The notes: generated by a model from the letters alone, not told the origin. 64,000 nucleotides of DNA from a bacterium (GCA_037200965.1 JBBCGK010000001.1:480001-544000), one strand, 5' to 3'; shown: positions 1 to 26,688, counted from the stretch's first letter. Numbers and translations are program-made.

Positions 1-350
1 AACGCAAGCTCATTACGGGCGGCACCGCGAAGACCGTGTATACCGTCACCGGGACGCTCTACGAAAAGAAGATGCCGCCGCTTCCCAAGGCGAGCGTCAA
101 GCACAAAGTCCCTTCGGGCTATTGGAAGATCGTCGCCGTCGAGACGGACGACGGGATCGACGCCGTGGCGTTCGTCATGCCGCAGGATACACCCAAAGCC
201 GCCGATTATTGCGAAACGCGCACCACCATCGGCGACGTTGAGACGCGCTCGGGCCTCAAGTTCTTCCTCGATCTCAACGAGACCGACCGCACGCAGCTTG
301 AGGAGAGCGAGGCGAAGACCGGCCTCTATGAGGATTTGGGCTGCGAGTAG
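1..350 (+). CDS. 5'-partial CDS, C-terminal part of a putative DNA/RNA non-specific endonuclease-like protein
   Basis: The frame is open from the window edge through GTG at 36 to the stop at 350. The ...VPSGYWKIVAV...AVAFVMPQDT... pattern resembles the C-terminal region of the Endonuclease_NS family; this is a weak match made by eye. Confidence 0.35.
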   Translation, partial: RKLITGGTAKTVYTVTGTLYEKKMPPLPKASVKHKVPSGYWKIVAVETDDGIDAVAFVMPQDTPKAADYCETRTTIGDVETRSGLKFFLDLNETDRTQLEESEAKTGLYEDLGCE

Positions 351-372
351 CACGAGCGCGGGAAGATACGGC

Positions 373-660
373 ATGCGCAAGGCATTCATACTGACGCTGG
401 TGGCGTTCTCCGCACTTGCGGCAACCCCACTCATCGCGCGGACCACGGATGCGGAAGTCCGGGGACAAATGATCCGCGAGTCCATCGCAAGCTATCCCGG
501 CAACTGCCCGTGTCCGTACAGCACGATGCGAAACGGGCGCTCCTGCGGCGGGCGAAGCGCGTACAGTCGGCCCGGCGGATATGCTCCGCTGTGCTACCCG
601 TCTGACGTTTCGGACGATATGGTGCGCGGCTATCGAAGCACGCATGGGCTCGGGAACTGA
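373..660 (+). CDS. small secreted Cys-rich protein (hypothetical)
   Basis: ATG at 373 opens with a hydrophobic signal-like N-terminus (MRKAFILTLVAFSALAATPLIA) followed by several Cys; there is no family match. Confidence 0.35.
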   Translation: MRKAFILTLVAFSALAATPLIARTTDAEVRGQMIRESIASYPGNCPCPYSTMRNGRSCGGRSAYSRPGGYAPLCYPSDVSDDMVRGYRSTHGLGN

Positions 661-856
661 TCGATCCGATTGATATCTGGCGAAGCGCGCAAACGCTCAT
701 CTCGCTCTATGGCGATGAGGCGGAACAGTTCGCGCTTCGCCGCGCCGCTACCCTGCTCGGCGAAGGAGACCGGGAGGGCCATGCGGCAATGGCAAGCGTT
801 GCGGAAGCGGTGAAGAAGCTGCGGCAGGAGCGGCCCGAAAGCGGCGATGCCGTCCA

Positions 857-1330
857 CTAGTCGGCGTCCGGCAGCTTATCGGAAGCCTCGGCAAACTCCC
901 GCACCAGCGCGACGATGTGCTTGCGCCGGGCGGGCGACTTGACCTGCGCGAACGCTCTCGCAAGCGCCCGCCCGTCGGCGCTCGAAAGCAGCGGCATTTC
1001 TTCCGCGAACAGTGCCGAACGGGCTTTGTCGTATGCCTCGGAAACGAAGTATTCCCAGGGCAGATCAAGCACCACCATCATCCGCAACAGCGCTTCAAGC
1101 GGCAGCCGGTTGGTTCCCTTTTCATACTTCTGCATCTGTTGGAAACTAACGCCGAGGCGCTTTCCGAGAGCGAGTTGCGACAGGCCGCGCAGCGTCCGTG
1201 CGGCAAATATCTTTTGGCCGATAATCTTATTGATCTCTGACGAACTGTGCTTGCGCGGGGCCATTCTCAATCCCGTTATACTATCGATCTCGCAAATTCT
1301 ATGGCGCGAAAACCCCATTGTCGCGCGCAA
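857..1330 (-). CDS. XRE-family helix-turn-helix transcriptional regulator
   Basis: A 157-aa ORF with an HTH_3-like segment (IGQKIFAARTLRGLSQLALGKRLGVSFQQMQKYEKG). Confidence 0.6.
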   Translation of the reverse strand: MRATMGFSRHRICEIDSITGLRMAPRKHSSSEINKIIGQKIFAARTLRGLSQLALGKRLGVSFQQMQKYEKGTNRLPLEALLRMMVVLDLPWEYFVSEAYDKARSALFAEEMPLLSSADGRALARAFAQVKSPARRKHIVALVREFAEASDKLPDAD

Positions 1331-1340
1331 TCTCAGCCTG

Positions 1341-2384
1341 TTACGCCTCCTTCATCCACTCCCGGTGCATGCGCTCCCATTCCGGGCGCGGCGCTTCGAA
1401 CTCTTCCCGGAACCACGGCATATGCTCTGGCACGAAGACCGTCTCGCGCAGGAACGCGAGCGTCGATTTGACGGCGGGTTTTGCGGCATGCACGCGGTTA
1501 TATGAGATGTAGAGCTTGCCGGGAAGGCGAAACGCAAGCGGAAGGGCGACGAGGTCCGGGTCGCCAAGCGCGTGGTAGGTAGGTGCGAGCGCGATGCCCG
1601 CGCCAAAATGCAGGCACCGCTCGAAGAAGCTCGTCTGGTTGGTGAGGATCGACACGTTCTTGACGACGTTTCCGCCCGACCATGCGGCCCAGGATGCCGT
1701 GCGCGTCTGATACTGGGCGAGATCGAGCAACCGGTGCTCGCTAAGCGCTTCGCTCGTCTGCGGCGTCCCGTGTTTTTGCAGATAGGACTTCGACGCGAAC
1801 AGGGCGTAATGGACGGTCGCGAGCGGCCTCGACACCTGATCCGAATTTCCCGGATCGTAGAAGTGGATGCGGATGTCGAAGCTGTCGCTTCGGGGCGCGG
1901 TGATGTCCTGATCGGGCGATACCTTGAGCTCAATGTTCGGATGCCGTTCGAGGAAGCTCGGCATGAACTGCGCCAGCCAGAGGCTCGCAACCCCGTCCGC
2001 GACCAGGATGCGGCAGTCGCCTTGAACGCTGCCTCCGCTGTCCTTCGCGTCCCTGCGAAGGAGCGCAATGCATTTGCGCGCCTCAAACGCGTTCGGAAGC
2101 AGACGTTCGCCGAGGTCGGTGAGCGCGCAGCCGTCGGTGCCGCGTATGAATACGCGCCCGCCGATCCACTGTTCGAAGCTGCGCAGCCGCTTGCTCACGG
2201 TTGCCTGCGTTGATCCGAGCATCGCCGCGGCCCGCTTGATGCTGCCGCCCTCGGCGATTGCGAGAAAATAGCGGAGATCGTTCCACTGCTCGGGCGAGGG
2301 GTCATCACTATTGGAAAGTACCATCTTCCGTCCCTTGGCTTCCGGGCGGCGATAATCGAATGGCAATTTAAGCTCCGGCAACAA
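1341..2384 (-). CDS. LysR-family transcriptional regulator (the true start may be the internal Met near 2324)
   Basis: N-terminal LysR HTH (LRYFLAIAEGGSIKRAAAMLGSTQATVSKRLRSFEQWIGGRVFIR) followed by a substrate-binding-like body of about 300 aa. Confidence 0.65.
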   Translation of the reverse strand: MLPELKLPFDYRRPEAKGRKMVLSNSDDPSPEQWNDLRYFLAIAEGGSIKRAAAMLGSTQATVSKRLRSFEQWIGGRVFIRGTDGCALTDLGERLLPNAFEARKCIALLRRDAKDSGGSVQGDCRILVADGVASLWLAQFMPSFLERHPNIELKVSPDQDITAPRSDSFDIRIHFYDPGNSDQVSRPLATVHYALFASKSYLQKHGTPQTSEALSEHRLLDLAQYQTRTASWAAWSGGNVVKNVSILTNQTSFFERCLHFGAGIALAPTYHALGDPDLVALPLAFRLPGKLYISYNRVHAAKPAVKSTLAFLRETVFVPEHMPWFREEFEAPRPEWERMHREWMKEA

Positions 2385-2425
2385 AAAAATGCATAAGGCG
2401 CCAGGCGGCGCCGTGGAGTAATTCC

Positions 2426-3592
2426 TTGGAAAAGAACGATTTTAGCGCGATACGAAGCGGTACCTACGGGCCCGAACATGCCGCAGCGCATCCCGATGGG
2501 GGAAGCGTATGGCTGCGTCCGGCCGGGGTCGGGGATATTCCGTTTGTGCATAGCCTGACCGTCTCGGACATCTCCGCCGAAACGGCACCGGAGGAGGTTA
2601 TTCGGGCTGTTCACGCCCGCAATCCCGATGCCCTGTGGCTTATCGAGCGCCAAAGAGGCGGGGAGCCACCGGCCCCTATCGGCTATTTCGGCTTCCTGCC
2701 GCTCACCGATCCCGGTCTCGACGCGCTCAAGGAAGGCGCGCTCGACCGCAAGAGCCCGCCGCTTGAGCTTGTGGCCGAGGGCGGCACGCGTCCGGCGGCG
2801 GTGTACGTGTGGGGCGTCGTGGCGCATCGCCTAGTGCGGGTCACCGCGCCGCTCCTCACCCTCGCGCTTTCGCCTTACATCGACGTTCCCTTCTACACCG
2901 TCTCCCAGACCGAAGAGGGGCTGCGCTCGGCCCGTAGGCGCGGCTTCGTGCCGGTCGATGCGCGGATCGGCGACCGGGGCGGGCTCGTGCTGCTGCCGCT
3001 TGGCAGCCTTCTTGCGCCGCCGCCAAGCAAAGTCGCGCAGCTCGACGTGATCGTGGCCTCGAACGCCGAGCACCTCATGATGTGCGCCTATGTTCGCGGC
3101 GTGGTGTTCGGCGCGGAGCAGCTCGCCCCCTACCGCGAGGAATTCGACGGCAACGACTTCTGCGGCATCCAGCTTCTGGGGTTCGTGAACAACGAGCCTG
3201 CGGCAGTGCTTCGCATCCGTCACTTCGCGTCATTCGCGAAATTCGAGCGGTATGCCGTGCTCGAGCGCTTCCGCAAAACGCGGATCAAGTACGAAATCCT
3301 GGAGTTCGGAATCGAGCTGTGCCGCCGCAAGGGATACACGAAGCTCTACGCGCACTCGCAGGTGCGCCTCGTCCGCTTCTATGAGCGGTTCGGCTTTCGT
3401 CTGTGCGCCGCGCAGCGTCCGCTCGTCTTCGCGGATCACGAATACGTCGAGATCGAAGCCGACCTCGCGCCGCATCCCGAGGCGATCACGACCGCCACCG
3501 ATCCCTACGTGATCATCCGACCCGAAGGGGCGTGGGACAGGCGCGGCGTTCTTGACCAGTCAGCGGCACGGCCCGCGACTAATCCCGTCTAG
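2426..3592 (+). CDS. GNAT-type N-acetyltransferase domain protein, with the GNAT fold in the C-terminal half
   Basis: C-terminal motif-A-like RRKGYTKLYAHSQVRLVRFYERFGF; the N-terminal 200 aa are uncharacterised. Confidence 0.45.
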   Translation: MEKNDFSAIRSGTYGPEHAAAHPDGGSVWLRPAGVGDIPFVHSLTVSDISAETAPEEVIRAVHARNPDALWLIERQRGGEPPAPIGYFGFLPLTDPGLDALKEGALDRKSPPLELVAEGGTRPAAVYVWGVVAHRLVRVTAPLLTLALSPYIDVPFYTVSQTEEGLRSARRRGFVPVDARIGDRGGLVLLPLGSLLAPPPSKVAQLDVIVASNAEHLMMCAYVRGVVFGAEQLAPYREEFDGNDFCGIQLLGFVNNEPAAVLRIRHFASFAKFERYAVLERFRKTRIKYEILEFGIELCRRKGYTKLYAHSQVRLVRFYERFGFRLCAAQRPLVFADHEYVEIEADLAPHPEAITTATDPYVIIRPEGAWDRRGVLDQSAARPATNPV

Positions 3593-3594
3593 GA

Positions 3595-3831
3595 GTGCTC
3601 GACATGGCCGGAACGCTCGATTGCTTTGTCCGCCTTGTTGAACTCGACACCTGCGTGCGTGAGTTGGCACAGCGCAAGCGCGCGAATAATAGGATCAGCA
3701 TATCCGATCTTGATGACGTTCTCCTGGCGCTTGCTGAAGCTCGGGAAACGATCCAGGACGACGCGTATGACGAGATGGCGAGGCGGCGAGCGATAACAAC
3801 GGCGGACATAATGCAGTTCGCAAAAGATTAG
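3595..3831 (+). CDS. hypothetical small protein (78 aa)
   Basis: ORF immediately downstream of the GNAT gene; no recognisable motif. Confidence 0.3.
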   Translation: MLDMAGTLDCFVRLVELDTCVRELAQRKRANNRISISDLDDVLLALAEARETIQDDAYDEMARRRAITTADIMQFAKD

Positions 3832-4098
3832 CGAAAGCGCGCGGCTCTATTCAAAACGCGGCCTACGACAAGTTCGCAACTATTCGTCCGACAACACTCG
3901 CCCGATAACGGATCATTCGGCAACCAGAGGATAATGAGTATATCGCGGGAGCGAAGCATAGGAGACGATGCAGTGCATAGTCCGTCATAAATTCAACGGC
4001 GGCATCCTGATGGTAGCTGTATAACAGCGTGGTGCCGGAACTTCCCCTTGTAGCCAATACCGGGCTTCGTTACAAAGCTTCAAGGGGAGGCTATATGC

Positions 4099-5770
4099 AT
4101 GCTTAATCACACCTTTGGAGTGATCTCGCTGGGTCGTTTCCTCACTGCTATACGTCCTGCGCGTTATGCGGTCCGCTCTGCCAATCGAACACGCTTCGGC
4201 CAAGGGCTGGTCTCGGTCCGCACCCTAGTCGTCGCTGCGTGCGTTGCAATGAGTTGGCTAGCCGCATTGCCGCAAGCCGCCATCGCGAGCAGCGTCTTGA
4301 TGAGCGTGCCAGGCGAAAGCGACGTAAACTCGGCGGGTGCCTTCACATATTCACTTCCTATTGCAGTTCCGCCCGGGACTGCCCGCATCGTACCGCGACT
4401 GTCGCTTGATTATTCCAGTCAAAGCGGCAATGGCCTCCAAGGCCTCGGCTGGTCGCTTTCCGGATTGCCGGCAATAGGAAGATGCGCGCGCACGGTGGCG
4501 CAAGACGGCGTGCATGGCAGTGTCAATTACGACGGCAGCGACAAATTCTGCTTGGAAGGCCAGCGCCTAGTCGCCCTAAGCGGCGTCTATGGCGCGAACA
4601 ATACGGAATATCGTACCGAAATAGAGAGTTTCACCAAAATTATTTCATACGGAACGGCGGGTAACGGGCCAGCCTCGTTCAAAGCGTGGACCAAGTCCGG
4701 TCAAATCCTGGAATTCGGAAACACGGCGGATTCCCGTATCGAAGCGGTCGGCAAGACAACGGTGCGCGCGTGGGCCGTCAATAAGGTTTCCGATGCCAAA
4801 GGAAACTACGTCACGGTCGAATACACCGACGACCAAACTAACGGAGAGGCGTATCCGGTTCGGATTGATTATACCGGCAATCCCAACGCAACGCCGGTGG
4901 TTATGCCGTACAATTCCGTGCAGTTCACATACACAACGCGCGCAGATATCACGATTGCCTATCAGGCCGGTTCGCAGCAGAAGATCACAAAACTTCTCAC
5001 CAATATTAAGACTTATCAAGCCGCGAATTTGGTTTCCGACTATCGCCTTGCCTATCAAGCCGGCTCATCGCTCGCACATTCGCGTCTAACGTCCATCACG
5101 TTATGTGATGGGTCGGGTACGCCGGTATGCCTTGCCCCCACGACCTTTGGCTGGCAGGGTGGCAGCGGTAGCCTGCCGACAATGACCGGGACCGCATCCA
5201 CTATCATTCCGACGCAAAGCGGTGATTTCAACGTTGACGGATTAACAGACCCCTTTGTCAAAGCCCCGTATTTTGGAACTCAGAGCGGAACGTTCGTCGC
5301 GAGCGGCATGACTATAAGCTATACCGACCCCATATCGGGATTGCCGTGGTCGGGTCTAACGGCTTTCCCCAACACAATGGTCGGGTTTGTATTGGGTGAT
5401 ACCGACGGAGACGGGTATAGCGACGTCACCGCGATGCGGGGTATCGCACATGGCGCTTATGCCAGGTTGGTGGTTACGCGCAACGACCAGCTCGGAAATC
5501 TTGGTCAGATCGGCCTGATCGATCCGCTGCATGCTGGCGCCATATTCAGCGGCGACTTCAATGGAGACGCGCGCACGGACGTTTTCGTGACGGGTGTAGC
5601 TTCTTATAACAGTACGACGTATCTGAGCCTGGGGACCGGATCGTTCACCGCCATCAACATGAGTTCGGTATATGAACCCATCACGACCGCCGATTTTGAT
5701 GGTGACGGATGCACCGATTTCTTGGGATCGACTAGTTGCACAACCTCCTTTTTACGAACGATCCTGCAGG
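4099..5770 (+). CDS. 3'-truncated Tc-toxin/Rhs-type protein N-terminus (SpvB domain plus FG-GAP/VCBS beta-propeller repeats); coding terminates inside repeat R1, so it is likely a gene fragment
   Basis: Good SD (AGGGGAGG) 8 nt before ATG 4099. The SpvB signature is PRLSLDYSSQSGNGLQGLGWSLSGLP...DKFCLEGQRLV. FG-GAP-like DxDGDG repeats are present (DTDGDGYSD, DFNGDARTD, DFDGDGCTD). There are no RHS/YD repeats or C-terminal toxin: after 5735 the frame runs into the 36-bp repeat and then into antisense, Arg-rich sequence. Confidence 0.7.
5735..5770. repeat. 36-bp direct repeat R1 (GTTGCACAACCTCCTTTTTACGAACGATCCTGCAGG), distal to cas2
   Basis: Exact 36/36 identity with the copies at 7319, 8730 and 11669, read directly from the sequence. 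Confidence 0.97.
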
Positions 5771-5784
5771 TTTCCGTTAATCTT

Positions 5785-7125
5785 CTAAGTCTCTTGTTGA
5801 GACGCAACACAGCCCCACGCCGCTTTTACCGAGTCATAGATAAAGCCTACCGTCAGAACCTTGGATATAACCGTCGTGGTTGGCAACGCCGTGCCTTCTG
5901 CCACGAACGACGCCCCCCAGGTAATCGCCCGGGCCGTACCGTCGTCTTTGATCCTGAAGATGAGCGTCTGGAAGTTCGTGGGTGTACCGGAGAGATTTGT
6001 CGTCATCGACGTGATCGCGGTCGCAAGAGCAGTAATCGTCACGGCGTCGCACCCATCGCTATTCACTGTAGGGGTTGCCGAAGAAACAATCGTCGTTATG
6101 CGTGGAGTATTTCTCTTATTTGCAAGAGTCTGTGTACCATTGTTAGTCACGACACTGTCAGCGTTTGTGCCTGCAACCGAGATTCTCAAATCTCCTGTTC
6201 CAACGGTAAGCACTCCTGAGGTGTGCGTTGCAACCCAGTTACCGTTACTAATGTTCCAGGTAAAACCAGTAGCACTAAAGAGATCGGCCCATCCAAGCGC
6301 GGTCGTCCCAAGAGCGGCAATATCATTCGTGACCGGGGAAAGAGCGGAGGAGGTAAGTTGTATCGTTCCTGTTCCGTTGATAGCCAGACCAAGCGTATTG
6401 GTTGTAGGAAGGTAGAGGCGATTACCGGTAGCAGTTGAAGAGGTAGGAGCAAAGCCAGCCGCAGTTGCCAGCGATGCCAACGTCAAAGCTCCGGCGTCGG
6501 TCAAGGTTGCATTGGTGGATGTTGCTTGTGCGCCGCGCGAAGTACCATCGGACCGAAGTATAGATTCATCTGTGGCAAAAGTGGCGGCAGCGGTGACTAC
6601 ATTACTCGGTATATCGCTTGTAAGAGCGACGGTACCCGTGGACGCCGGAAGGGTAATGGTGTTAGTTCCAGCGATTGCCGTAGGGACGAGGGCGATGGTA
6701 CCGGAAGTTGAACCCGAGAAGGTTACACCCTGGGTACCGGAAATGATGCCAGTGGTGTCAGCAATAAGCACTGCCGAGTTCTGGATCAGCTTACCAGTGG
6801 TAGTGTCGAAGCGGGCCACGGCGTTATCAGTTGCTGAAGCCGGGCCTACAACATAGGTAGCAAGGGAAGCAGTCGTAGGAATAACATAGCCGCTTTGGAG
6901 CGCTATAGCGATCGTTCCGGAAGTAGTGATCGGTACGCCGGATACCGTAAGTCCTGTCGGTACCGTAGCGTCAACGGATGTAACCGTACCTCCTCCTCCG
7001 GGGAGGTCTATAAGAAGCCTGTGCGTCGTCGGGTCTGCATATAGACGCACAGGCGTCTTGCCGTCAGCGCTTGAAGCTGCTATCAGCGTTGGAACATCGT
7101 TCTGGTCTCGGTAAGCATCAGCCAT
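5785..7125 (-). CDS. S/T/G-rich fibre-like protein (possible phage tail-fibre / adhesin-like), 446 aa
   Basis: Long low-complexity T/S/G/A-rich body with a distinct C-terminal globular-looking region (FQTLIFRIKDDGTARAITWGASFV...). It ends 14 bp before R1, and its N-terminal motif SSADGKTPVRLYADPTTH is duplicated in the upstream fragment. Confidence 0.4.
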   Translation of the reverse strand: MADAYRDQNDVPTLIAASSADGKTPVRLYADPTTHRLLIDLPGGGGTVTSVDATVPTGLTVSGVPITTSGTIAIALQSGYVIPTTASLATYVVGPASATDNAVARFDTTTGKLIQNSAVLIADTTGIISGTQGVTFSGSTSGTIALVPTAIAGTNTITLPASTGTVALTSDIPSNVVTAAATFATDESILRSDGTSRGAQATSTNATLTDAGALTLASLATAAGFAPTSSTATGNRLYLPTTNTLGLAINGTGTIQLTSSALSPVTNDIAALGTTALGWADLFSATGFTWNISNGNWVATHTSGVLTVGTGDLRISVAGTNADSVVTNNGTQTLANKRNTPRITTIVSSATPTVNSDGCDAVTITALATAITSMTTNLSGTPTNFQTLIFRIKDDGTARAITWGASFVAEGTALPTTTVISKVLTVGFIYDSVKAAWGCVASQQET

Positions 7126-7127
7126 AA

Positions 7128-7325
7128 TCAGGTACTTTGTACGAGTAATTCCCCGGCACTATTGGCGTAGAGCACCACAGGCGTCTTGCCGTCAGCGCTT
7201 GAGACAGCCATGAGTGCAGGAACAAAGTTTGCGTCCCGCAGATCGTCTACCGGCCCAAAGTCCGACCCGGTAGTGTCGTCGTCCGCCATAAGCGCATGTG
7301 TTGAAGGGTCAGCAACGAGTTGCAC
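7128..7325 (-). pseudogene. out-of-frame duplicated N-terminal fragment of the fibre-like gene; its GTG start lies inside repeat R2
   Basis: GTG at 7325..7323 sits 2 nt after the AAGGAGG of the repeat (minus sense). The encoded ...ADPSTHALMADDDTT...SSADGKTPVVLYAN repeats the N-terminal motif of 5785..7125. A stop at 7130..7128 then puts it in a different frame from the ATG at 7125. Confidence 0.4.
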
Positions 7326-7354
7326 AACCTCCTTTTTACGAACGATCCTGCAGG
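7319..7354. repeat. 36-bp direct repeat R2
   Basis: Exact copy of the 36-mer. Confidence 0.97.
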
Positions 7355-7451
7355 AGTATGAGTACTGATACCGTCCAATCTGCCATTGAATATGCGCGAC
7401 ACTCGCCGTCGTGACGACGTTGAGTTAAGTCAATGGCGATTTATGTTACTG

Positions 7452-7973
7452 TCACCGGACCGGCACGAACCCTTCGGGAAGAAACTGCGTCGGGTCCTTC
7501 CACGGTTCAATAGCAACTGCTTTGGGGTATTTGCTTATCATGTAAGCATCGGTGCAATACACCAAACTTTCGGGATCATCGTCCGAAGGCTCAAGGCCTG
7601 AAAATTCAACCATCACAGATTTCTGGTTGGTAATTTTTCCAAAGGTGTCAATGAACCGCTTGATTTTGTCAAACTCACGCACAAAATCGTCGGGCTCAAA
7701 TAGATAGGAATACACTACTACTGTATTCTCGCCGACGATCCGTTCGGAACCGTCCTCATTTTTCACGCGGAAACGCCCAGCGGCGAGCGGCAATTGGGTT
7801 ACACCGCCATTGATCCGCACCATAATTTCCATGGCGCTATCGACCCATTTGTCAAAATTTTCAACAGGCTTCTGATCGCGATCTTGGTTAGGCAAATAAA
7901 CTGCAAACCGTTGTACCGATTCAGATGTATCGGCACCTAGCGCGGTCTTGAGGTCAAAATCTACGAGCGCCAT
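7452..7973 (-). CDS. hypothetical protein (173 aa), upstream partner of the PRTase-domain gene
   Basis: Clean ORF with balanced composition and no recognisable motif; it is co-oriented with, and 86 bp downstream of, the PRTase gene. Confidence 0.45.
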   Translation of the reverse strand: MALVDFDLKTALGADTSESVQRFAVYLPNQDRDQKPVENFDKWVDSAMEIMVRINGGVTQLPLAAGRFRVKNEDGSERIVGENTVVVYSYLFEPDDFVREFDKIKRFIDTFGKITNQKSVMVEFSGLEPSDDDPESLVYCTDAYMISKYPKAVAIEPWKDPTQFLPEGFVPVR

Positions 7974-8059
7974 GATCGCTTCCTATTAGCCATCAATGAA
8001 AAGGCCCCATAGCCGGGGCCTTAAAGTAGGCAAAATGCCAAATTGCAACGCTGATGCCG

Positions 8060-8716
8060 CTACCGCGGTCTTGAAGGTCTCCGAATTCCGAGCACCGTTT
8101 TAGGGTCCCGCTTGATCTTTAGAAACCGTCCAAATCCCGAACGAGCGTCTTCAGGTTTCTCCGCTTGTTGGGAAGCTGAACGAATCGCTGTCACTATCTC
8201 GTTAGCAGCTTCTGATATGGGCGGCAAATTTTGCCGGTTATAGTCGCCTGGCGGGATTCCCGCGTGCTTCTTTTTCATATGATTTTCTCCTGTTTCTTCA
8301 CAGGGTTGCGACCCATCGGTCTCAGCCCCGTGTTGATCGGGAGAAAGCCCTTCAAGAATCGGGCCGCGTACGTCGGTTTCCCAGGTTAAGGCTTCGACGC
8401 GAATATCCTGGCCACGGTCCGTCCTTATGCTTTCGCGATGGGGACCATACCCACATAGTACCACAGCGGCATGCGTAGTCGCGCCCGAAATCTCGTGGAC
8501 TATATCCGCAGCAGCGCCAATACCAGCGCCCGTTACTATCAAGTCATAGACCATCAAGATGCGATCACCGGAAAGCGGTTTGTCTGCCGTTATTGCTACG
8601 CCCTTCGCCCAACGCGTCTCGCGATAGATGCAGGCGGGCAATCCGGTTTCGGCGACGAGGGACGAGAGCATCGAAATCGCGCCGACCGGCCCCATCTCTT
8701 TTTCGATAAAGCACAA
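8060..8716 (-). CDS. phosphoribosyltransferase (PRTase type I) domain protein; start at TTG 8716 or ATG 8695
   Basis: PRPP-binding-loop-like DRILMVYDLIVTGAGIGAAADIV. Such PRTase-domain proteins occur as effectors in some anti-phage systems; that point is from general knowledge, not from a search. Confidence 0.55.
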   Translation of the reverse strand: MCFIEKEMGPVGAISMLSSLVAETGLPACIYRETRWAKGVAITADKPLSGDRILMVYDLIVTGAGIGAAADIVHEISGATTHAAVVLCGYGPHRESIRTDRGQDIRVEALTWETDVRGPILEGLSPDQHGAETDGSQPCEETGENHMKKKHAGIPPGDYNRQNLPPISEAANEIVTAIRSASQQAEKPEDARSGFGRFLKIKRDPKTVLGIRRPSRPR

Positions 8717-8729
8717 TCGCGTAATGCCG

Positions 8730-8765
8730 GTTGCACAACCTCCTTTTTACGAACGATCCTGCAGG
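8730..8765. repeat. 36-bp direct repeat R3
   Basis: Exact copy of the 36-mer. Confidence 0.97.
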
Positions 8766-9363
8766 AAACCATGAGAGAACCCGAGTTGATCTCGGTGGCC
8801 ACGATCTTCAAAGGCGACAACTCGTTAAATTCCTCATAGTTCAGGTCAGCGAACCGAATTCGATCAGGCACTCCATCGTGATCACGACCATTTGCGGCAT
8901 ATAATTCCCGCATACGTTCTCGAAGAACTGTGTTGATGAATTCACGAATGGGCGTTGTGGTGAAAAAGCCTAAGTGCCGCCATATGCGCAGCATTCCAAA
9001 CGTAACTAGGGGAGCTGTTAAAAAAGACAATAATACACCCCCCAACGCCGTAGCGGACAATGCCCATCGAAGTCCCTGGCGGAGGCGAACAAATCTACGC
9101 CAATCATCAGCCCCCAATAACGTTACGGGGGTCAAGTTATGTAGGCTGAGAATATTTTGATCCCTAATGTCGGGATTCATCAAAGTCGAAGCACTGTATC
9201 CCGCCGCGACTAGCGTTGCCACGATCGCGCCAGCTGACGCCCCGGCTACACCTACGAAGGCGAGCCCATTCTTCGCGGCACCCTCCAAAGCACCAATATG
9301 CGCTATGCCCTTAGCACCGCCACCTTCGAATATGCCAAAGGCTGGCCTCTTAGCGTCCATCAC
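8766..9363 (-). CDS. patatin-like phospholipase, 3'-truncated at repeat R3 (lacks the region that would carry the catalytic Asp)
   Basis: GGGAKG oxyanion motif and GASAG (GxSxG) serine motif near the N-terminus. The ORF reads straight into the repeat (…SGSLMVS|CRIVRKKEVVQ) before any DG[A/G] Asp motif and then continues as Arg-rich antisense of the PRTase gene. Confidence 0.6.
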
Positions 9364-9496
9364 TGTATGTATCCTTTCGCAAATCAGGTCGGGGCCTGCA
9401 CAAACGACAGAACATCGGACAGGCTGGTGAAATAATGAGATACCAGCCTTCGCACATTGCTGTTCCGCATACAGATACAGCAGTTGCTAGTTCAAA

Positions 9497-11068
9497 TCAG
9501 TTCAGTTGCTCCCGCACCAACGAAAGATCGTTGAACAACGTTCTCGTAAGATTCGGGATTTTTTCCAGTTTGTCTGCTTGTATTAACTTCGCCATAAAAC
9601 GAATGCTTCCCTCCACTCGCTCGTCATAGAATATTTCGTGCAGAAACTTCCGCCCCTGCCGCAAATCCGTAGCATCAAACAGAAATTCCAGCTTGGCTTC
9701 GTTATCGACCATAGCAACTGCACGCCAAAAGAATCGAGGAAAATTCGCTGTCAGGAGGCTCTTGCGGACTATCTTGCTTAGGGAGGAGCGCGAAACAATC
9801 TCGCGTTTCAGATCGCTTGGGCCATTCAAAAATATGTCCCACTCGAAACGAGCCATATCACTATTGCTCGATAATTTTTTAAGCATCTCTAAAATATGAT
9901 CAAATGCCAGGATAGCATCGTACACGTCGTCAAATCGGACGCGAATTTTGCTATAGAGCGGCACGAGACACAAATCCGCGCGAGCACGGGTTATCTTCGT
10001 CCCACGCTTTCGAGACCAAGTTGTCGTTATGATGTTAGATGGGCCGCTCAGCTTGATCTCAGAGTATGGGCCGATGCCGTCGTCATGCGCATACAGTTTG
10101 GTTATGCGCGTCGCCCGTAGAAGAAAACCCGTGCGAGGTTCGGGTACTATGGGACCAGTTGTGGGCCCAAGGCCGCTGAGTGCGACCGCGTGAAATGCTC
10201 GTTTGCTTTTCTTGGAGCGTTCTAAGTTGAAGTCAAAACTCAGAATGATCGGAATATTGCCCCTCAAGAATGCATTTGCTGCGGCTTGGATATTGGCTCG
10301 CTCGGGCGTCATAAACAAATCCGCTTCGAGACCGACATTGCGCAAAACGCCAGCCATTTGATCGATATCCAAGCCGTCGTTCGGGAGAGCTAGGCCAGCT
10401 GTTGGCAGCGAAGCAAACGCTCGTTTGGTTATTTCAATAGGTGATAAGATTGGATTGTCATACAAATTCGCCGTGCCATGCAGTGTAGTCCACAGAGCGC
10501 TGGTAGCGCATGCGCCAACCTCTCGGTCTTGTTCTTGAAAAGGCAGCGCACGTACAGGCAGATCTATGCCGAAAAGATTTGGTACATATCCGCGCTCAGT
10601 GAGGAAGCGACTCGATGGATTACTCCCAACCGGCGCCAAACACGTTCGCCCAATGATGGTTTCGGGAAGAGGTTTGACAACTACAAAGCCGTGATATCCC
10701 AAGACGTCGAACCTACACTCACCGCGGCCCGAAACGAAAAGCGCTTCGACCATATCTTTATCGAACGGTTGCCGAAAAAAGTGAATTCGTGAACATTCTT
10801 TCGGATAGTTCGCGTGGCATCTCGCGTAGTATCCTGTATGATCTTCGGCGAAATGCTTGTCGATGTAGTCGCGCTCAAATACAAGAGTTTCGATTTTCGC
10901 GGCTTCACAGTAACGAGCTAGAAAAATGACCTGGGGCTTTTGTGCAATTTGCTCCAGTCTAGGTTTAAATGCTCCGGCAACAAAAAGCGCTACCAAGTTC
11001 TCTCGATTGTACTTGAGTACTTGGTAGCGCTCGCCCATGTGATCTAACTGAATATCCGCGTACGTCAC
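9497..11068 (-). CDS. hypothetical 523-aa protein with a possible papain-fold / peptidase-C39-like Cys-His domain
   Basis: Candidate catalytic Cys in EVGACATSALWTTLHG and downstream His/Asp in AFHAVALSGLG / YAHDDGIGPY. This is pattern recognition only. Its start overlaps the end of 11065..11529 by 4 nt. Confidence 0.3.
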   Translation of the reverse strand: MTYADIQLDHMGERYQVLKYNRENLVALFVAGAFKPRLEQIAQKPQVIFLARYCEAAKIETLVFERDYIDKHFAEDHTGYYARCHANYPKECSRIHFFRQPFDKDMVEALFVSGRGECRFDVLGYHGFVVVKPLPETIIGRTCLAPVGSNPSSRFLTERGYVPNLFGIDLPVRALPFQEQDREVGACATSALWTTLHGTANLYDNPILSPIEITKRAFASLPTAGLALPNDGLDIDQMAGVLRNVGLEADLFMTPERANIQAAANAFLRGNIPIILSFDFNLERSKKSKRAFHAVALSGLGPTTGPIVPEPRTGFLLRATRITKLYAHDDGIGPYSEIKLSGPSNIITTTWSRKRGTKITRARADLCLVPLYSKIRVRFDDVYDAILAFDHILEMLKKLSSNSDMARFEWDIFLNGPSDLKREIVSRSSLSKIVRKSLLTANFPRFFWRAVAMVDNEAKLEFLFDATDLRQGRKFLHEIFYDERVEGSIRFMAKLIQADKLEKIPNLTRTLFNDLSLVREQLN

Positions 11069-11529
11069 ACTGTGAACGGGATACGCCGACGGTCAGGAGA
11101 AATCTGGTTGGCTTGTTCTCGACTTTCAATTGCCTTGAGCATTGGCGAAAGACGCTTAGCGACTTGCGCAGTAAGATCAGTTCTGGAGGCCGTCGCCTTG
11201 GACTTGGGCCGTGCAGAACTCTTCGTCTTTTTGTGACGCATAGCGCAACCTCCAATTTCGGTGAGCAGGATGTTGCCCTCAGTTCCAGCCCGGCGGGTAT
11301 AAACTCCAACACGGGGATCAAAATCAAGCTCATGGACTTGACTTCCTGGAACGGGGCCGCCTAGGGCTCCCCTGTAACGAATCAGCCCTGTTCTTAACGT
11401 ACCACGAGCGCCTTCGTATCCCCAATATTTTGTATGTGGATAATCCACCAACACAAGTTCTTTGAATGGTGAGGCTGGCCGTTGCCTTTCCTCAGTGGCG
11501 TCGCCGTCCGTTGACCCAATCGCCTGCAT
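11065..11529 (-). CDS. hypothetical protein (154 aa), first gene of the R4-R3 segment, translationally coupled to the 523-aa gene
   Basis: ORF overlapping the downstream gene by 4 nt (ATGA-type overlap); no recognisable motif. Confidence 0.45.
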   Translation of the reverse strand: MQAIGSTDGDATEERQRPASPFKELVLVDYPHTKYWGYEGARGTLRTGLIRYRGALGGPVPGSQVHELDFDPRVGVYTRRAGTEGNILLTEIGGCAMRHKKTKSSARPKSKATASRTDLTAQVAKRLSPMLKAIESREQANQISPDRRRIPFTV

Positions 11530-11668
11530 AACAATTTAATGCCTTCCTTCTGGCAGCAGACCACTAGGAGCGGCAGACGGCCGTTCATTATCAGCGTGGA
11601 TCATTGGCTGGACCGAGCCCCAATCGGTGACTGATTCGTACGGCTAAAGACCGCTCGGGTCAACTAAG

Positions 11669-11704
11669 GTTGCACAACCTCCTTTTTACGAACGATCCTG
11701 CAGG
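11669..11704. repeat. 36-bp direct repeat R4, 32 bp from the cas2 stop codon
   Basis: Exact copy of the 36-mer; the cas2 stop codon is at 11737..11739. Confidence 0.97.
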
Positions 11705-11736
11705 AGTCCGTGTATATTGAGCGGTAACGCGAATTA

Positions 11737-12033
11737 CTAGACAATCTCAAAGGACTTGATCTTATAATACTCCCCGATAACGGCATCGGCAGTTGAATTA
11801 AGTGCGCATGATTTGCAGGAAGAAAATAGATGCAGCCGATCCCGTTTTCCCGTGAATAGCGATCGCATCTTCATTTCAAATTCCCGGCGCTCCTTAAAGG
11901 AAAGGCGTCCGACGTAGAGAGTCTGTTGAAGTGCGGATAAACCATAGTCCTTTGATAACTTTTCCGCGCGGATCTGGCGCTGCCGATTGGCGGTTCTCCA
12001 GGCGACTATTGCAAGGAAGCATGGATCATTCAT
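11737..12033 (-). CDS. cas2: CRISPR-associated endoribonuclease Cas2
   Basis: A 98-aa ORF overlapping cas1 by 4 nt. It has the Cas2-like pattern ...LYVGRLSFKERRE... (compare E. coli Cas2 GVYVGDVSAKIRE) and a hydrophobic N-terminal strand. Confidence 0.7.
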   Translation of the reverse strand: MNDPCFLAIVAWRTANRQRQIRAEKLSKDYGLSALQQTLYVGRLSFKERREFEMKMRSLFTGKRDRLHLFSSCKSCALNSTADAVIGEYYKIKSFEIV

Positions 12034-13085
12034 GGTGCCGCATATTCAAACGGCACATATAAGGGCGCTTTTTCAAGAAATACCCGGCTTAAGAGCTCGC
12101 TCTGTTCCGTAATGGTATTGCGGAGCGTACGGCGTTTCCCGTGATGGAGGACTTTCGACTCGAGGCGCTTAAGCACCGCCTCAACCACCTTGCTCTTTCC
12201 TTGCGCAGAAAGCCGATATTCGATCTTGCTTACCTGCTCGAAATCGCCGCGCTTGCCAAGTTCCTGAGAAATGAAGAGCGGCATGACTGCAGCGTCGACG
12301 ACGGGGACCCGAAACTCTTCGACCAGATCGAGGACGAGCGCGGGCTTGCCGTAACGCTCGGAATGATAAAGTCCGAGATACGGGTCGAGACCGATATAAA
12401 GGCACGCCCGCTCGACTTCGTTATAGAGGATGCCGTATCCGTAATTAAGAGCGCTGTTGAACTTGTCCCTGCCTTGCGGTATCCGGCCCGGGAACTTAAA
12501 AAGCGATTTCATGCCTTGCCAATAGCGCTCTGCAATGGATCCTTCAAGGCCAAGCAGTTCCTCGTTCACCCGGTTGCTCGGAAGCAGCTTCGCTATCGAC
12601 TCAAAAACCGCCTCCGCCTGCATCCGCTCCTTCGCATTCTCCGCACCGTATCGGTCGGCAAGATGGCGCATAAAGCGGATTTGGTTGCGGCACTTACCGA
12701 CAACGAAGGTACGCGCAAGTTCGAAGGATTTAGCCGGATCGGAGGAAGTCGTAAGCTGTGCGCGGCGCAATGTCGCGAGCCCCTTCGGGTCGCTTGAGAA
12801 AATGCGCCCGACGGGTTTCCCAAATGCGCCGAGATAGACGATATCGACTTCGTGCTCGAGCGCGAGTTGCACCGCATGCATGGAAATGGAGGACGGACGG
12901 AGTATGACGATCTTAGCAAGCCGCCGGACCGGATACTCCTTCTTAACCCGGAGAAGCTTTACCGCAGTTCCCCGCTTGCGACGCCTGCCACCCCCAAGCG
13001 GCTTTCGCGGAACCGGGAGACTGACCGTAATACGCTCGCCCGTCGCGCCGATGAAGCTGCCATAGGTATCTATCAGCAAATCCAT
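12030..13085 (-). CDS. cas1: CRISPR-associated integrase Cas1
   Basis: Hallmark NALNYGYGILYNEVERACLYIGLDPYLGLYHSERYGKPALVLDLVEEFRVPVVD (Cas1 catalytic region with conserved H/E/D), 351 aa. Confidence 0.85.
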   Translation of the reverse strand: MDLLIDTYGSFIGATGERITVSLPVPRKPLGGGRRRKRGTAVKLLRVKKEYPVRRLAKIVILRPSSISMHAVQLALEHEVDIVYLGAFGKPVGRIFSSDPKGLATLRRAQLTTSSDPAKSFELARTFVVGKCRNQIRFMRHLADRYGAENAKERMQAEAVFESIAKLLPSNRVNEELLGLEGSIAERYWQGMKSLFKFPGRIPQGRDKFNSALNYGYGILYNEVERACLYIGLDPYLGLYHSERYGKPALVLDLVEEFRVPVVDAAVMPLFISQELGKRGDFEQVSKIEYRLSAQGKSKVVEAVLKRLESKVLHHGKRRTLRNTITEQSELLSRVFLEKAPLYVPFEYAAP

Positions 13086-13140: not shown

Positions 13141-14571
13141 TTACCCAAGCCTCGGAAACAGATTCTCCGGTTTCTTATTTTCCGTAACCGCCTCTTTTAT
13201 TTTCTCGCTCGTCGACGGCATGAAAGGACTGAGGAAACGGGCAATCCAATAGAGCTCGGCGGCGAGCCCGGCAATGATCGCTCTTCCCTTTTCCGGATCG
13301 TTCTTCACGAGCTTGAACGGCTCTTCGGCCGTGATGCGTTCGTCGGCAGCTTGTATGCGCGCGAATATGTAATCGAGCGCCTGATCGAAACGGAAAGCTG
13401 CGAACGCATCAATATATTCTTTCGGAAACGCTTCCGACGGGGCAGGACGCGCGACCGGCTCCGGAAGGTGCGTCTCGGCAAGCTTCATCACACGCGCGAC
13501 GAGGTTCCCGAGGCCGTTCGTAAGATTCGCGGTATACCACTCATCAAGCCGCTCCCACGTGACATCGGAATCTTCAACCGGATGCACGTGCCGAAGCAGC
13601 ATGTAGCGGGTGGCGTCCGTACCGTATTTCGCAACAAGCTCGCCCGGGCTTATGACATTCCCGAGACTCTTGCTCATCCGCTGCCCGCCGGAATTTATGA
13701 ATCCGTGATAGAAGACCTGATCGGTGTTCTTAATGCCGGCCGAAAAGAGCATCGCCTGCCACATAAGCGACTGGAATCGCACCTGATCCTTCCCTGCCGT
13801 CTGGAGCGTTTGTCCTTCCTCCCAGAACTTCTTGAAATTGCCGTCCGCGTCTCCGGGCCATCCGAGCGCCGAGATGTAGTTCGTAAGAGCGTCGAACCAG
13901 ACGTACATAACCTGCGTATCGTCTCCCGGAACCGGAACCCCCCACGAAAGCCGCGCTTTCTCGCGCGAGATACTGAAATCCTCGAGCCCTCCTTTCACGA
14001 AGCTGAGCGCCTCCTCCCTCCTCCACTCAGGAATTACGACATCCGGACGGGCGAGGTACTCGATCAGGCGGTCCTGATACTTTGAATATCTAAAGAAATG
14101 ATTTTCTTCCGAAATCTCCTGGAGCTCGAGATTTGGGTGGAGCACGCAATGCCCGTCGGCCAGCTCCTTTTCCGTCTTGTACGCTTCGCATCCGACGCAA
14201 TACCAGCCAACATAGGCCTTCTTATATATATCCCCCGCTGCCTCGCACCGCTTCCACATCTCCTCGGCAGCCCTGATATGCTCGGGGCTCGTCGTCCGCA
14301 TGAACCCGTCGTTAGTGAGTGCGAGCGTCTCCCTAAGCGAGCGTACCCGTCCCGCATAGTCGTCGACGTAGGCCTGCACATCCTGTCCTACTTTTTCGGC
14401 TGACTGGAATATCTTTTGCCCGTGCTCGTCGGTTCCAGTCGAGAAAAATACTTCTTCGCCAGAAAGCCGCCAGAAACGCGCAAGCGCGTCGGCCTGCACA
14501 AGCTCGAGCGCGAAGCCGATATGCTGATCGGCATTCACGTACGGAATCGTTGTCGTTACGTATCTCGCCAT
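13141..14571 (-). CDS. metG: methionyl-tRNA synthetase, short form without a C-terminal tRNA-binding domain
   Basis: Class I HIGH-like PYVNADQHIGF, Zn-knuckle CVGCEAY...GHC, KMSKS (RMSKSLGNVISP); 476 aa. Confidence 0.85.
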   Translation of the reverse strand: MARYVTTTIPYVNADQHIGFALELVQADALARFWRLSGEEVFFSTGTDEHGQKIFQSAEKVGQDVQAYVDDYAGRVRSLRETLALTNDGFMRTTSPEHIRAAEEMWKRCEAAGDIYKKAYVGWYCVGCEAYKTEKELADGHCVLHPNLELQEISEENHFFRYSKYQDRLIEYLARPDVVIPEWRREEALSFVKGGLEDFSISREKARLSWGVPVPGDDTQVMYVWFDALTNYISALGWPGDADGNFKKFWEEGQTLQTAGKDQVRFQSLMWQAMLFSAGIKNTDQVFYHGFINSGGQRMSKSLGNVISPGELVAKYGTDATRYMLLRHVHPVEDSDVTWERLDEWYTANLTNGLGNLVARVMKLAETHLPEPVARPAPSEAFPKEYIDAFAAFRFDQALDYIFARIQAADERITAEEPFKLVKNDPEKGRAIIAGLAAELYWIARFLSPFMPSTSEKIKEAVTENKKPENLFPRLG

Positions 14572-15668: not shown

Positions 15669-16190
15669 TCAGCGTGCCGCAGCGCCAAGCTGCTCGTCGG
15701 GGAGCCTGTCGTCGGGCGACATGAAGAGCGCAACCACCCCAAGGACGACAGACAGAAATCCGAATCCCGGATTAGCTCCGAGGCCTGCGGAGAGGAGCAC
15801 GAGCGCGGGCATGGTGAGCGAAATCGTCGTCGCCCCCAAGTGGAGGACCGGGTGTTCGATCGCGTTCACGCTGCGCGGATAGCCGAAGTCCGAGACGTAA
15901 AGCAGAAGAAGCAGTGTGGCTGCGGTACTCGCGACGCCGATCACCCAAGAACCGCCGAGGAAAAGCATGACGGTGCCCGCGGCCGCAAAGACTGCCGAAG
16001 GCGCCGCAATGGTTGCCTGCATTTTATTCATCTTTTGCAGGATGCCCATGCCGACCGCAAGCAAGAATACAATACCCATCACCCTATTCTGCTGGGCGAG
16101 CACATTGACATGAAACAGGGAGCTGGTGACGTAAAAGTACAAAGGACCGGTTGCCATGAGGGCAGCCGCGAATATCTTGTTCATGAGCAA
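15669..16190 (-). CDS. hypothetical integral membrane protein
   Basis: A 173-aa ORF with several hydrophobic helices. Confidence 0.4.
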   Translation of the reverse strand: MLMNKIFAAALMATGPLYFYVTSSLFHVNVLAQQNRVMGIVFLLAVGMGILQKMNKMQATIAAPSAVFAAAGTVMLFLGGSWVIGVASTAATLLLLLYVSDFGYPRSVNAIEHPVLHLGATTISLTMPALVLLSAGLGANPGFGFLSVVLGVVALFMSPDDRLPDEQLGAAAR

Positions 16191-20713: not shown

Positions 20714-24085
<3,372 letters not shown>

Positions 24086-25794: not shown

Positions 25795-26688
25795 TTATTT
25801 GCTTACAGTAATCTGCTCCGGACTCTCGATAACGATCTCGGCCTTGCCCTGGTATTCCCTGATCTCGCCCGTGAGGACGAGGGTTTTGCCCTGATATTGT
25901 TTAATGTTGGCGAACTCGCGCGCCGCGGAAGCGAATATGACCGCACTGAAGGGGCACGTCTTATAAGAAGAGCAGTAGTCGAAGAAGATCGTGCCGCTTT
26001 TTGAGGTATAGACCTTCGCGATGCGGCCGGTGACGGCGGCGTATTCCCCGATATGGTTCTTCGCCTGCGCATAATCGTACGTACCCCGTATTTCTCTCGG
26101 ATTTGAAGTACTGGCCGCGGAAACGACCGGTATCGCGCCGCCCTTATTAGCCGCGATGATCTTCTTCAAAAGCCCGAGGTACTGATCATGCACGTAGCCG
26201 TTCGTGCCGATCTCGAGCAGCTCGTCGTTCGCGTTCGTCGCGCTTGCCGTCCAGTTATAGCTGCCCGACGCATATCCCGCGTCCGTCACGATTGCCTTGA
26301 TGTGCATGATGCCGTCTTCGTGCGCCTGCGTCGCGATCAATATTCCGGCCGCAACGAGCTTTTTGATAACTCCCTGTTCGAAACTTTCGCCCGCTTGCCC
26401 TCGATCGACGATTCCCTCGACGATCAACCCCCGCTTCTTCGCGCGCACGAGCGCGTCGGCGATGTCGTCTTTGGTGAACGTATAGATGGCGAAATAGACA
26501 TATTCGGTTGCTTGGTCGATAAGCGAGATAATCTCCTTGTCGTTCTTATGCGCGTCGAGGCTATAGACCACGCGGAACTGATGCTCGGTGTACGCTTTCG
26601 CGACGAAGGCGCAGATGAGCGCAAGACAAACAGCGCTGATGAGAAGAGTTTTGTGGCGAAGAAGGTATGTGCGAAAGCCGGATGCCAT
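25795..26688 (-). CDS. phospholipase-D-like (HKD, Nuc-type) nuclease with N-terminal TM anchor and C-terminal OB-fold domain
   Basis: HKD motif HIKAIVTD…GSYNWT, an N-terminal hydrophobic anchor, and a C-terminal OB-like segment. Confidence 0.55.
   Translation of the reverse strand: MASGFRTYLLRHKTLLISAVCLALICAFVAKAYTEHQFRVVYSLDAHKNDKEIISLIDQATEYVYFAIYTFTKDDIADALVRAKKRGLIVEGIVDRGQAGESFEQGVIKKLVAAGILIATQAHEDGIMHIKAIVTDAGYASGSYNWTASATNANDELLEIGTNGYVHDQYLGLLKKIIAANKGGAIPVVSAASTSNPREIRGTYDYAQAKNHIGEYAAVTGRIAKVYTSKSGTIFFDYCSSYKTCPFSAVIFASAAREFANIKQYQGKTLVLTGEIREYQGKAEIVIESPEQITVSK

Follow-up and report, generated by a model that had tools for sequence, protein, structure and literature searches.

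A probably CRISPR-derived cas1–cas2 locus with kilobase-long 'spacers' in a Patescibacteria genome

What kind of locus places segments of more than a kilobase between perfectly identical short repeats, directly beside genes for Cas1 and Cas2? The question is raised by a stretch of 64,000 nucleotides (nt) from a bacterium (GCA_037200965.1 JBBCGK010000001.1:480001-544000), which as a whole is called the window here and from whose first letter all window positions are counted. An earlier note, made from the sequence alone, had read the inter-repeat segments as carriers of defence and toxin modules of heterogeneous foreign origin. We read window positions 5735-13085 as a CRISPR (short palindromic repeats that are clustered and regularly interspaced)-derived locus of a Patescibacteria (Candidate Phyla Radiation, CPR) genome, in which a stand-alone cas1–cas2 pair adjoins a four-repeat array with 'spacers' of 2.9, 1.4 and 1.5 kb, and we put the probability of this reading at about 0.72.

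Four identical repeats beside a cas1–cas2 pair

A 36-nt direct repeat, GTTGCACAACCTCCTTTTTACGAACGATCCTGCAGG, occurs in four perfect copies (at 5735, 7319, 8730 and 11669), where shuffled sequences lead one to expect 0. The copy nearest cas2 belongs to the repeat family CCTGCA-N-AAAGGA-N-TGTGCAAC. Set against what defines a CRISPR array, the two components of the locus part company: the repeats are direct, identical in 4 of 4 copies, within the usual range of ~23-55 nt for near-identical repeats and adjoin cas genes, whereas the intervening segments S1, S2 and S3, at 1548, 1375 and 2903 nt, fall far outside the short (~21-72 nt) and nearly uniform lengths of CRISPR spacers. Because cas1–cas2 adjoins the array and the repeats are identical, the segments are taken to be kilobase-long 'spacers' of a CRISPR-like array. 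Rfam returned no CRISPR direct-repeat match and no other relevant family for the locus, and a scan for promoters and terminators gave results at or below shuffle expectation.

The Cas1 protein scores 221 bits against NCBIfam TIGR00287 (cut-off 71.7), no subtype model passes, and its best match in the PDB is a CRISPR Cas1 (7cr6, 1.8e-31), ahead of a casposase (6opm, 7.6e-20). The catalytic residues E181, H241, D253 and E256, which align with the known structure of Cas1 7cr6, do not vary among 21 relatives. Besides the Cas2b model, six further PADLOC Cas2 models match the Cas2 protein, with the Pfam Cas2 match (E=0.003) below its cut-off, and every related locus keeps cas2 downstream of cas1. 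A search of the 64-kb window and of 10 kb on either side of five related loci, which left the remainder of these genomes unsearched, found no gene for an effector, Cas4 or Cas6. Over 19.8 kb that take in the whole array, a second, independent assembly (GCA_015655515.1) agrees at 99.96% identity.

Related loci and mobility of the unit

The arrangement recurs widely. The Cas1 family is large in Patescibacteria (Kaiserbacteria, Adlerbacteria, Paceibacterota, Parcubacteria and others), and wherever the sequence of a related Patescibacteria locus extends far enough, cas2 is followed after 30-55 nt by a 36-37-nt repeat of the same family (on the cas strand, CCTGCA...AAAGGA...TGTGCAAC). At least 15 related Patescibacteria genome loci carry 2-8 repeat copies at long, irregular spacing, and many others hold a single repeat followed by housekeeping genes, that is, they are 'empty'. 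The complete chromosome OY969557.1 has 8 repeats separated by spacers of 213, 2526, 144, 579, 4007, 386 and 140 nt. A scan with a degenerate pattern added 83 further metagenome contigs and 13 further spacers, with canonical spacing in none. The 49 spacers measured span 140-4242 nt (median 1374), none being shorter than 100 nt. Within any one locus all repeat copies agree, and from locus to locus the sequence changes. More distant Cas1 relatives, at 30-35% identity (Methanospirillum, Methanocalculus, Bacteroidales, Iainarchaeum), accompany ordinary arrays with periods of 72-77 nt, and the 37-nt repeats of the Methanospirillum and Methanocalculus loci have the same CTTGCA...TGCAAC ends and central A-rich block. 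Given this likeness to the normal arrays of distant relatives, the long-spacer arrays appear to derive from canonical CRISPR.

A quite different origin of the array would be an assembly artefact, a normal array disrupted by mobile elements, a scattered 37-bp mobile or REP (repetitive extragenic palindromic)-like element, or the site of an unrelated recombinase, so that the array would not be a product of Cas1–Cas2 at all. Short-read assemblies at k=31 do break at the repeats. In sample Ga0079224, five contigs (L153, L186, L194, L164 and L213) can be joined through 123-nt overlaps at the repeats into a single array with spacers of ~4.1 kb, 1286 nt and at least 2.8 kb, which shows how assembly from short reads splits such arrays at each repeat. 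Metagenome contigs in which a repeat stands alone, with no cas genes near it, and a tyrosine-recombinase gene in one related spacer (L006) likewise fit such an origin. Against it, two independent assemblies of the window array agree, and related arrays occur in apparently long-read assemblies, including a closed chromosome (contig naming suggests long reads for several of them). No leftovers of short spacers are seen, the inserts end in cut genes and not in element termini, what lies left and right of each repeat is not contiguous DNA, and only cas1 and cas2 are consistently linked to the repeat, at a fixed distance. We therefore regard this origin as very improbable and largely refuted.

Strain comparison points to the place of insertion. 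Four contigs from different samples with identical Cas1 (L002/L003 and L004/L005) are 100% identical through cas1–cas2 and the repeat, after which two continue into chromosomal flank and two into unrelated DNA; the break falls exactly at the distal edge of the repeat, which is what insertion at the cas-proximal repeat predicts. The cas1–cas2–repeat unit is moreover a discrete block of ~1504 nt that ends exactly at the repeat and encodes Cas1 and Cas2 only (L027, 9899-11402, with the same coordinates in L031, L037 and L036; L039, 10002-11121). One metagenome-assembled genome (MAG; CAVYRH01...) holds three full and one 5'-truncated copy of the unit at 99.8-100% identity in unrelated flanks, with no flanking duplication or inverted repeat seen around these copies. 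This distribution suggests that the unit itself is mobile. In L002 an 18-nt exact direct repeat, AGGGAGTATGAGCGGGAT, flanks the unit at 9969-9986 and 11419-11436, its second copy starting immediately past the array repeat; such an 18-bp repeat, resembling a target-site duplication, is present in 1 of 19 loci and absent from the 18 others. In L009/L019 (9373-16441) the unit, a 4.2-kb spacer and a second repeat sit inside a ribosomal protein operon, between rplE (L5) and rpsN (S14, ~15870-16052) and just upstream of rpsH (S8). The spacer at this site contains an internal duplication of ~165 nt (12157-12321 and 13423-13587).

Cargo, borders and composition of the segments

The contents of the three window segments are of separate kinds. 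S1 is a piece of a phage structural region. Its 446-aa (amino acid) protein, which had been described as fibre-like and is indeed phage-related, has 379 relatives in IMG/VR, and its C-terminal domain occurs in 207 phage records. The fragment of ~63 codons next to it belongs to a gene whose full length in related viral contigs is 91 aa and which stands directly before the fibre-like gene, an order kept in two IMG/VR contigs (L058 and L061), while two others (L059 and L064) have a match to the 63-aa fragment beside their fibre-like gene.

S2 carries an open reading frame (ORF) resembling a phosphoribosyltransferase (PRTase). The domain assignment held in part: the phosphoribosyl pyrophosphate (PRPP)-loop region matches APRT/PyrE weakly (PDB 5b6h, E=0.006; NCBIfam APRT, E=1.6e-4), but there is no Pfam match. 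Since residues 44-91 align to positions ~108-154 of enzymes of ~180 aa, about 60 N-terminal residues are missing at the repeat at 8730-8765. The 173-aa ORF in the same segment has no match in Pfam, PADLOC, PHROGs or NCBIfam.

In S3 the patatin frame runs open into the same repeat, and the part of its domain beyond profile position 118 is lost. The 523-aa protein of this segment has the catalytic Cys and His, plus an Asp/Asn, in the right positions for a papain fold, as had been proposed for it. The overlap of its start with the stop of an upstream ORF is real, but the 154-aa partner once called there is probably an over-extension of an ORF of ~58 aa. Small ORFs of 58-76 aa consistently precede members of the 523-aa family (window 9497-11241, minus strand; L137, 5736-7626; L141, 3049-4777); the C-terminus RRRIP(F/I)TV is shared by the window and L141, and that of L137 is only loosely alike (RRDLNRPISM). 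Homologues of the 523-aa protein lie in a Pseudomonas island with PIN-TPR-GreABC, HetE-N and Mrr/M78, in a relaxase/TrwB element and on plasmids. The gene and its small ORF are intact and look like a module of the conflict-system or mobile-element kind, the sole one in the window cargo; the family may be an uncharacterised peptide–protease conflict module, and here the pair is best read as passenger DNA. S3 as a whole resembles mobile-element or genomic-island DNA from non-Patescibacteria.

A reading of this cargo as a set of defence and toxin modules finds no support. Every ORF that the earlier note had listed exists at or near its coordinates, yet two of the four 'modules' (patatin and PRTase) are truncated fragments and S1 is phage structural. 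Searching the region with PADLOC recovered only Cas1, Cas2 and a weak phospholipase match to the patatin fragment (E=1e-4 over 49 residues), which scores 19.8 bits with the NCBIfam anti-phage phospholipase model, whose cut-off is 400. That proposal also drew no link between the segments and the adjoining cas1–cas2, and the cargo of related arrays is unrelated, arbitrary material. Pfam scans of ORFs abutting the borders of related arrays found a Ser/Thr kinase beginning at profile position 157 of 263, a GntR protein at 12 of 64 and a Cas1 at 95 of 283, together with fragments of NHL, Ppx and ThyA and, in addition, Dcd, DnaX and a 727-aa glycosyltransferase. One 673-nt spacer lies wholly inside a TPR gene whose frame is open at both ends, and in one metagenome group the C-terminal end of a probable insertion sequence (IS) transposase, identified by eye, stands directly upstream of the repeat. 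The spacer with the Cas1 fragment is a copy of the cas1–cas2 unit truncated at its 5' end, 100% identical to another copy in the same MAG. In the best explanation the defence-like domains are passengers, and the locus does not exist for their sake; a defence island may be wrongly suspected where domains such as patatin and PRTase are the sole guide.

Borders were read frame by frame together with domain coordinates. Four of the seven segment borders in the window cut genes, namely the SpvB-like gene left of the array, the phage 91-aa gene and the PRTase and patatin genes, and at the repeat at 8730-8765 a patatin gene without its C-terminus meets a PRTase gene without its N-terminus. Because in no case does a gene cut on one side of a repeat resume on the other, the repeats were not simply inserted into native DNA. 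Spacer ends share no conserved motif, and the orientation of cargo genes relative to cas is mixed.

These borders bear on the possibility of an integron-like platform for gene capture, in which functional cassettes such as defence or toxin genes are recruited and kept as useful. Kilobase inserts beside an integrase gene, with insertion apparently proximal to it, would suit such a platform, as would the intact part of the cargo (the 446-aa gene, the 523-aa gene with its small ORF, the 727-aa glycosyltransferase and DnaX) and the conflict-system and mobile-element contexts of the 523-aa family. The repeats within an array are identical, however, where cassette-specific attC-like sites would be expected, and there is no end motif; many genes are cut at borders, including spacers wholly inside one gene, orientation is mixed, and the cargo is functionally unrelated, with a Cas1 fragment and phage structural genes among it and no PADLOC system match. 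An integron-like platform is accordingly quite improbable.

Composition agrees with a heterogeneous foreign origin of the segments, a point on which, as on most of its domain calls, the earlier note was right. Tetranucleotide usage marks S1, S3 and also the left flank as outliers (of 300 core windows matched in size, 0 were as extreme), S2 is marginal (2.7%) and cas1–cas2 is typical of the core. The differences in GC content that had been noticed by eye are present but small: 0.541 for S1, 0.516 for S2 and 0.506 for S3 vs 0.571 +/- 0.03 in the 13-64 kb core, with only S3 in the lowest 1%. In the left flank, the SpvB-like gene covers positions ~35-308 of a 2333-position PHROG profile and its frame is open into the adjoining repeat. 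Positions 1-3600, with LysR, GNAT and helix-turn-helix (HTH) genes, have a GC content of 0.63, atypical for a Patescibacteria genome, and the nearest relatives of these genes are in large-genome bacteria, those of the LysR protein, at 54% identity, in a genome with a 3.1-Mb contig, named matches being to Rhizomicrobium/Alphaproteobacteria. No further repeat copy occurs within 1-5734, and the flank may be an older, larger captured segment (at least 5.7 kb) or an island.

Look-ups of exact proteins for spacer donors returned the same organism only, and an IMG/VR scan found relatives of the 446-aa protein at no more than 60% identity and none of the 523-aa protein. In an all-against-all blastn comparison of 35 spacers with all collected loci no spacer was shared, with two exceptions: the self-derived cas1–cas2 fragment, and one 191-nt match between a spacer of L029 and L045. 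Coordinates of the window features are collected in Table 1.

Table 1. Features of the cas1–cas2 locus, its array and the left flank, in window coordinates.
Feature	Position	Strand	Remarks
Left flank: HTH, LysR, GNAT, SpvB fragment	1..5734	.	Tetranucleotide outlier
SpvB/FG-GAP (Tc-toxin/RHS-like) gene	4099..5734	+	C-terminus cut by repeat copy 4; Pfam SpvB + FG-GAP
Repeat copy 4, distal array end	5735..5770	-	Perfect copy
Giant spacer S1, 1548 nt, phage genome fragment	5771..7318	-	
Phage fibre-like/structural protein, 446 aa, intact	5785..7125	-	PHROG 3030, E=1e-22
Phage gene fragment, last ~63 codons	7128..7318	-	N-terminus cut by repeat copy 3 (7319)
Repeat copy 3	7319..7354	-	Perfect copy
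Giant spacer S2, 1375 nt	7355..8729	-	N-truncated PRTase-like ORF and 173-aa ORF
173-aa ORF	7452..7973	-	In S2
PRTase-like ORF	8060..8729	-	Called earlier as 8060-8716; frame open to repeat border at 8730
Repeat copy 2	8730..8765	-	Perfect copy
Giant spacer S3, 2903 nt	8766..11668	-	Small ORF, C39-like gene, C-truncated patatin gene
Patatin-like phospholipase gene fragment	8766..9363	-	Pfam Patatin, E=4e-13, covers 2-118 of the 191-position profile
Papain/C39-like cysteine peptidase family protein, 523 aa	9497..11068	-	
Conserved small ORF, ~58 aa	11065..11241	-	Ends RRRIPFTV; overlaps start of 523-aa gene; gene call in independent assembly
Repeat copy 1, cas2-proximal	11669..11704	-	Cas strand reads CCTGCAGGATCGTTCGTAAAAAGGAGGTTGTGCAAC
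32-nt gap, cas2 stop to first repeat	11705..11736	-	Leader-like position; gap of 30-55 nt in related loci
cas2, 98 aa	11737..12033	-	4-nt overlap with cas1; PADLOC Cas2b, E=9e-7
cas1, 351 aa, stand-alone CRISPR-type integrase	12030..13085	-	Pfam Cas_Cas1, E=1e-63

The rest of the window holds housekeeping genes typical of a small Patescibacteria genome (MetRS, a class II aminoacyl-tRNA synthetase, IleRS, ArgRS and eight tRNAs). Among them, an IleRS-like protein of 1123 aa (20714-24085, minus strand) has a complete His_Phos_1 domain at residues 502-674, between the halves of its catalytic domain, an unusual insertion or fusion. A phospholipase D (PLD)-like nuclease (25795-26688, minus strand) gives DrmC/DpdK-type matches in PADLOC (E=1e-10), with no other DISARM or Dpd components seen nearby.

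Proposed mechanism and known systems

In the mechanism that we propose, Cas1–Cas2 would take linear DNA without measuring it and join it to the repeat nearest cas2; this repeat would be attacked at both ends in a staggered way and, once the gaps are repaired, be present twice, as in normal adaptation minus the 30-40-bp ruler. With no length ruler and arbitrary fragments as substrates, inserts would lie in either orientation, share no end motif and have genes cut at their borders, and each window spacer would be an arbitrary piece of foreign double-stranded DNA. We think the odds slightly favour the broader proposition that a Cas1–Cas2 lineage of Patescibacteria has lost its ruler and inserts any linear DNA, from ~0.14 to >4 kb, site-specifically into a 37-bp repeat, a CRISPR-derived, homology-independent form of capture that is itself a mobile unit of 1.5 kb.

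What the sequences show is the anatomy of the locus, its recurrence, the cut genes, the lack of a motif at spacer ends, the strain polymorphism and the length, end motifs and central A-rich block that the repeats have in common with canonical ones; that Cas1–Cas2 is the catalyst, and what the biological role is, we infer. Several points weigh against this account. Known Cas1–Cas2 complexes measure prespacers strictly, so that kilobase substrates would need a different binding mode. Three of the seven window borders are intergenic, which is above the expectation for random cuts in gene-dense DNA, and a statistic of frames left open at borders was dropped, since intact genes starting at a border are indistinguishable from cut ones; truncation was for this reason read from domain coordinates. 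No donor above ~60% amino-acid identity was found for any window spacer, so that homology and composition are the only grounds for proposing acquisition from a specific source. L004 and L005, the polymorphic contigs, stop short of a second repeat, and the duplication is not directly seen there. Many metagenome contigs have a lone repeat with flanks of 6-10 kb and no cas genes, and in five (L152, L156, L157, L196 and L200) a single repeat has 3-10 kb on both sides without cas1, cas2 or a second repeat; these lone repeats may be signs of very long spacers, of loci in decay or of some other role for the repeat. Effector genes, finally, could lie elsewhere in these genomes.

Four other contigs (L151, L179, L185 and L214) have a Cas2 remnant of ~28 aa directly upstream of the repeat and no cas1. 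An ORF of great length (as much as 1292 aa) stops 141 nt short of the repeat, an arrangement that looks like a decayed module.

The array might alternatively serve as a working adaptive immune memory. Transcription from the cas side, with hairpins processed and long RNAs guiding remote effectors or acting antisense against phages and mobile elements, would accord with the phage origin of S1 and with the fold of the repeat. Folded as the cas strand, the repeat gives a hairpin with energies of -10 to -11 kcal/mol and z of -2 to -2.8, and the opposite strand, which was folded for the window repeat only, forms none; across 68 distinct repeats 86% of cells pair, and G-U pairs are frequent, on the cas strand only. 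Covariation in the stem is weak, with the score reached by 18 of 500 shuffles and the number of compensatory cells by 12 of 500, part of the stem was set by the pattern used for searching, and single-stranded DNA forms G-T pairs too. Nor is there an effector, a Cas6 or any other cas gene in the window or the neighbourhoods examined; much of the cargo is ordinary DNA of bacterial chromosomal type, and one spacer is self-derived. An immune memory is improbable on this evidence; opportunistic capture of DNA or genes is the likelier role, and RNA-guided immunity, or immune memory by way of long transcripts, takes second place. The data are also compatible with a largely selfish mobile unit.

If this capture is as proposed, the ruler can be lost or was never fixed, which bears on the transition from casposons to CRISPR, and small Patescibacteria genomes have an unrecognised route for acquiring DNA horizontally. 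A two-protein integrase that places kilobase payloads at a short, defined site would further be of interest for genome engineering and DNA recording. A full-text literature search, which did not cover subscription-only papers, found no description of this architecture, be it as kilobase spacers, as a stand-alone Cas1–Cas2 clade of Patescibacteria or as gene capture.

CRISPR adaptation is defined by measured spacers of ~30-40 bp. With the canonical adaptation module the locus and its relatives share a bona fide Cas1 with the catalytic Glu/His/Asp motif, a Cas2, an array adjoining cas2, partly palindromic repeats of 36-37 nt, strain differences at the cas-proximal repeat and the existence of single-repeat loci. 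They differ from it in their spacers, which in place of ~25-50 nt measure 140-4242 nt, vary greatly and contain whole as well as truncated genes, in having no effector, Cas4 or Cas6 nearby, and in the compact ~1.5-kb cas1–cas2–repeat unit, which occupies various sites and can be present several times in one genome. Stand-alone adaptation modules as such are known (Koonin & Makarova 2019, PMC6452270).

Casposons, self-mobilising elements with terminal inverted repeats and a family B polymerase (PMC6452270), offer a second comparison. As in casposons, an integrase of the Cas1 family is linked to the insertion of kilobase DNA with target duplication, and the unit looks mobile. Casposons are not known to carry Cas2 and produce target duplications of 14-15 bp; here, by contrast, the inserts are arbitrary and without terminal repeats, Cas2 is present, the duplicated target is a CRISPR repeat of 36-37 bp, the module has no PolB, and Cas1 is closer to CRISPR Cas1 than to casposase. 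With no end motifs shared by the inserts, Cas2 present, PolB missing and a flanking 18-bp duplication in only 1 of 19 loci, we rejected an identification of the locus as a casposon.

The likeness to integrons (IntI, attI/attC) lies in kilobase inserts that accumulate by an integrase gene, the newest apparently closest to it, and in a potential route for foreign genes. In integrons every cassette comes with a variable attC of its own, and the cassettes are usually whole genes that lack promoters and face the same way. The present arrays, unlike these, use another enzyme family and have identical repeats between inserts, random ends, truncated genes and mixed orientation; with no IntI beside the array, identical sites and genes cut at borders, an integron was rejected as well. 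There is a realistic chance that site-specific capture of kilobase DNA without a ruler forms a new functional class, standing between casposons, CRISPR adaptation and integrons.

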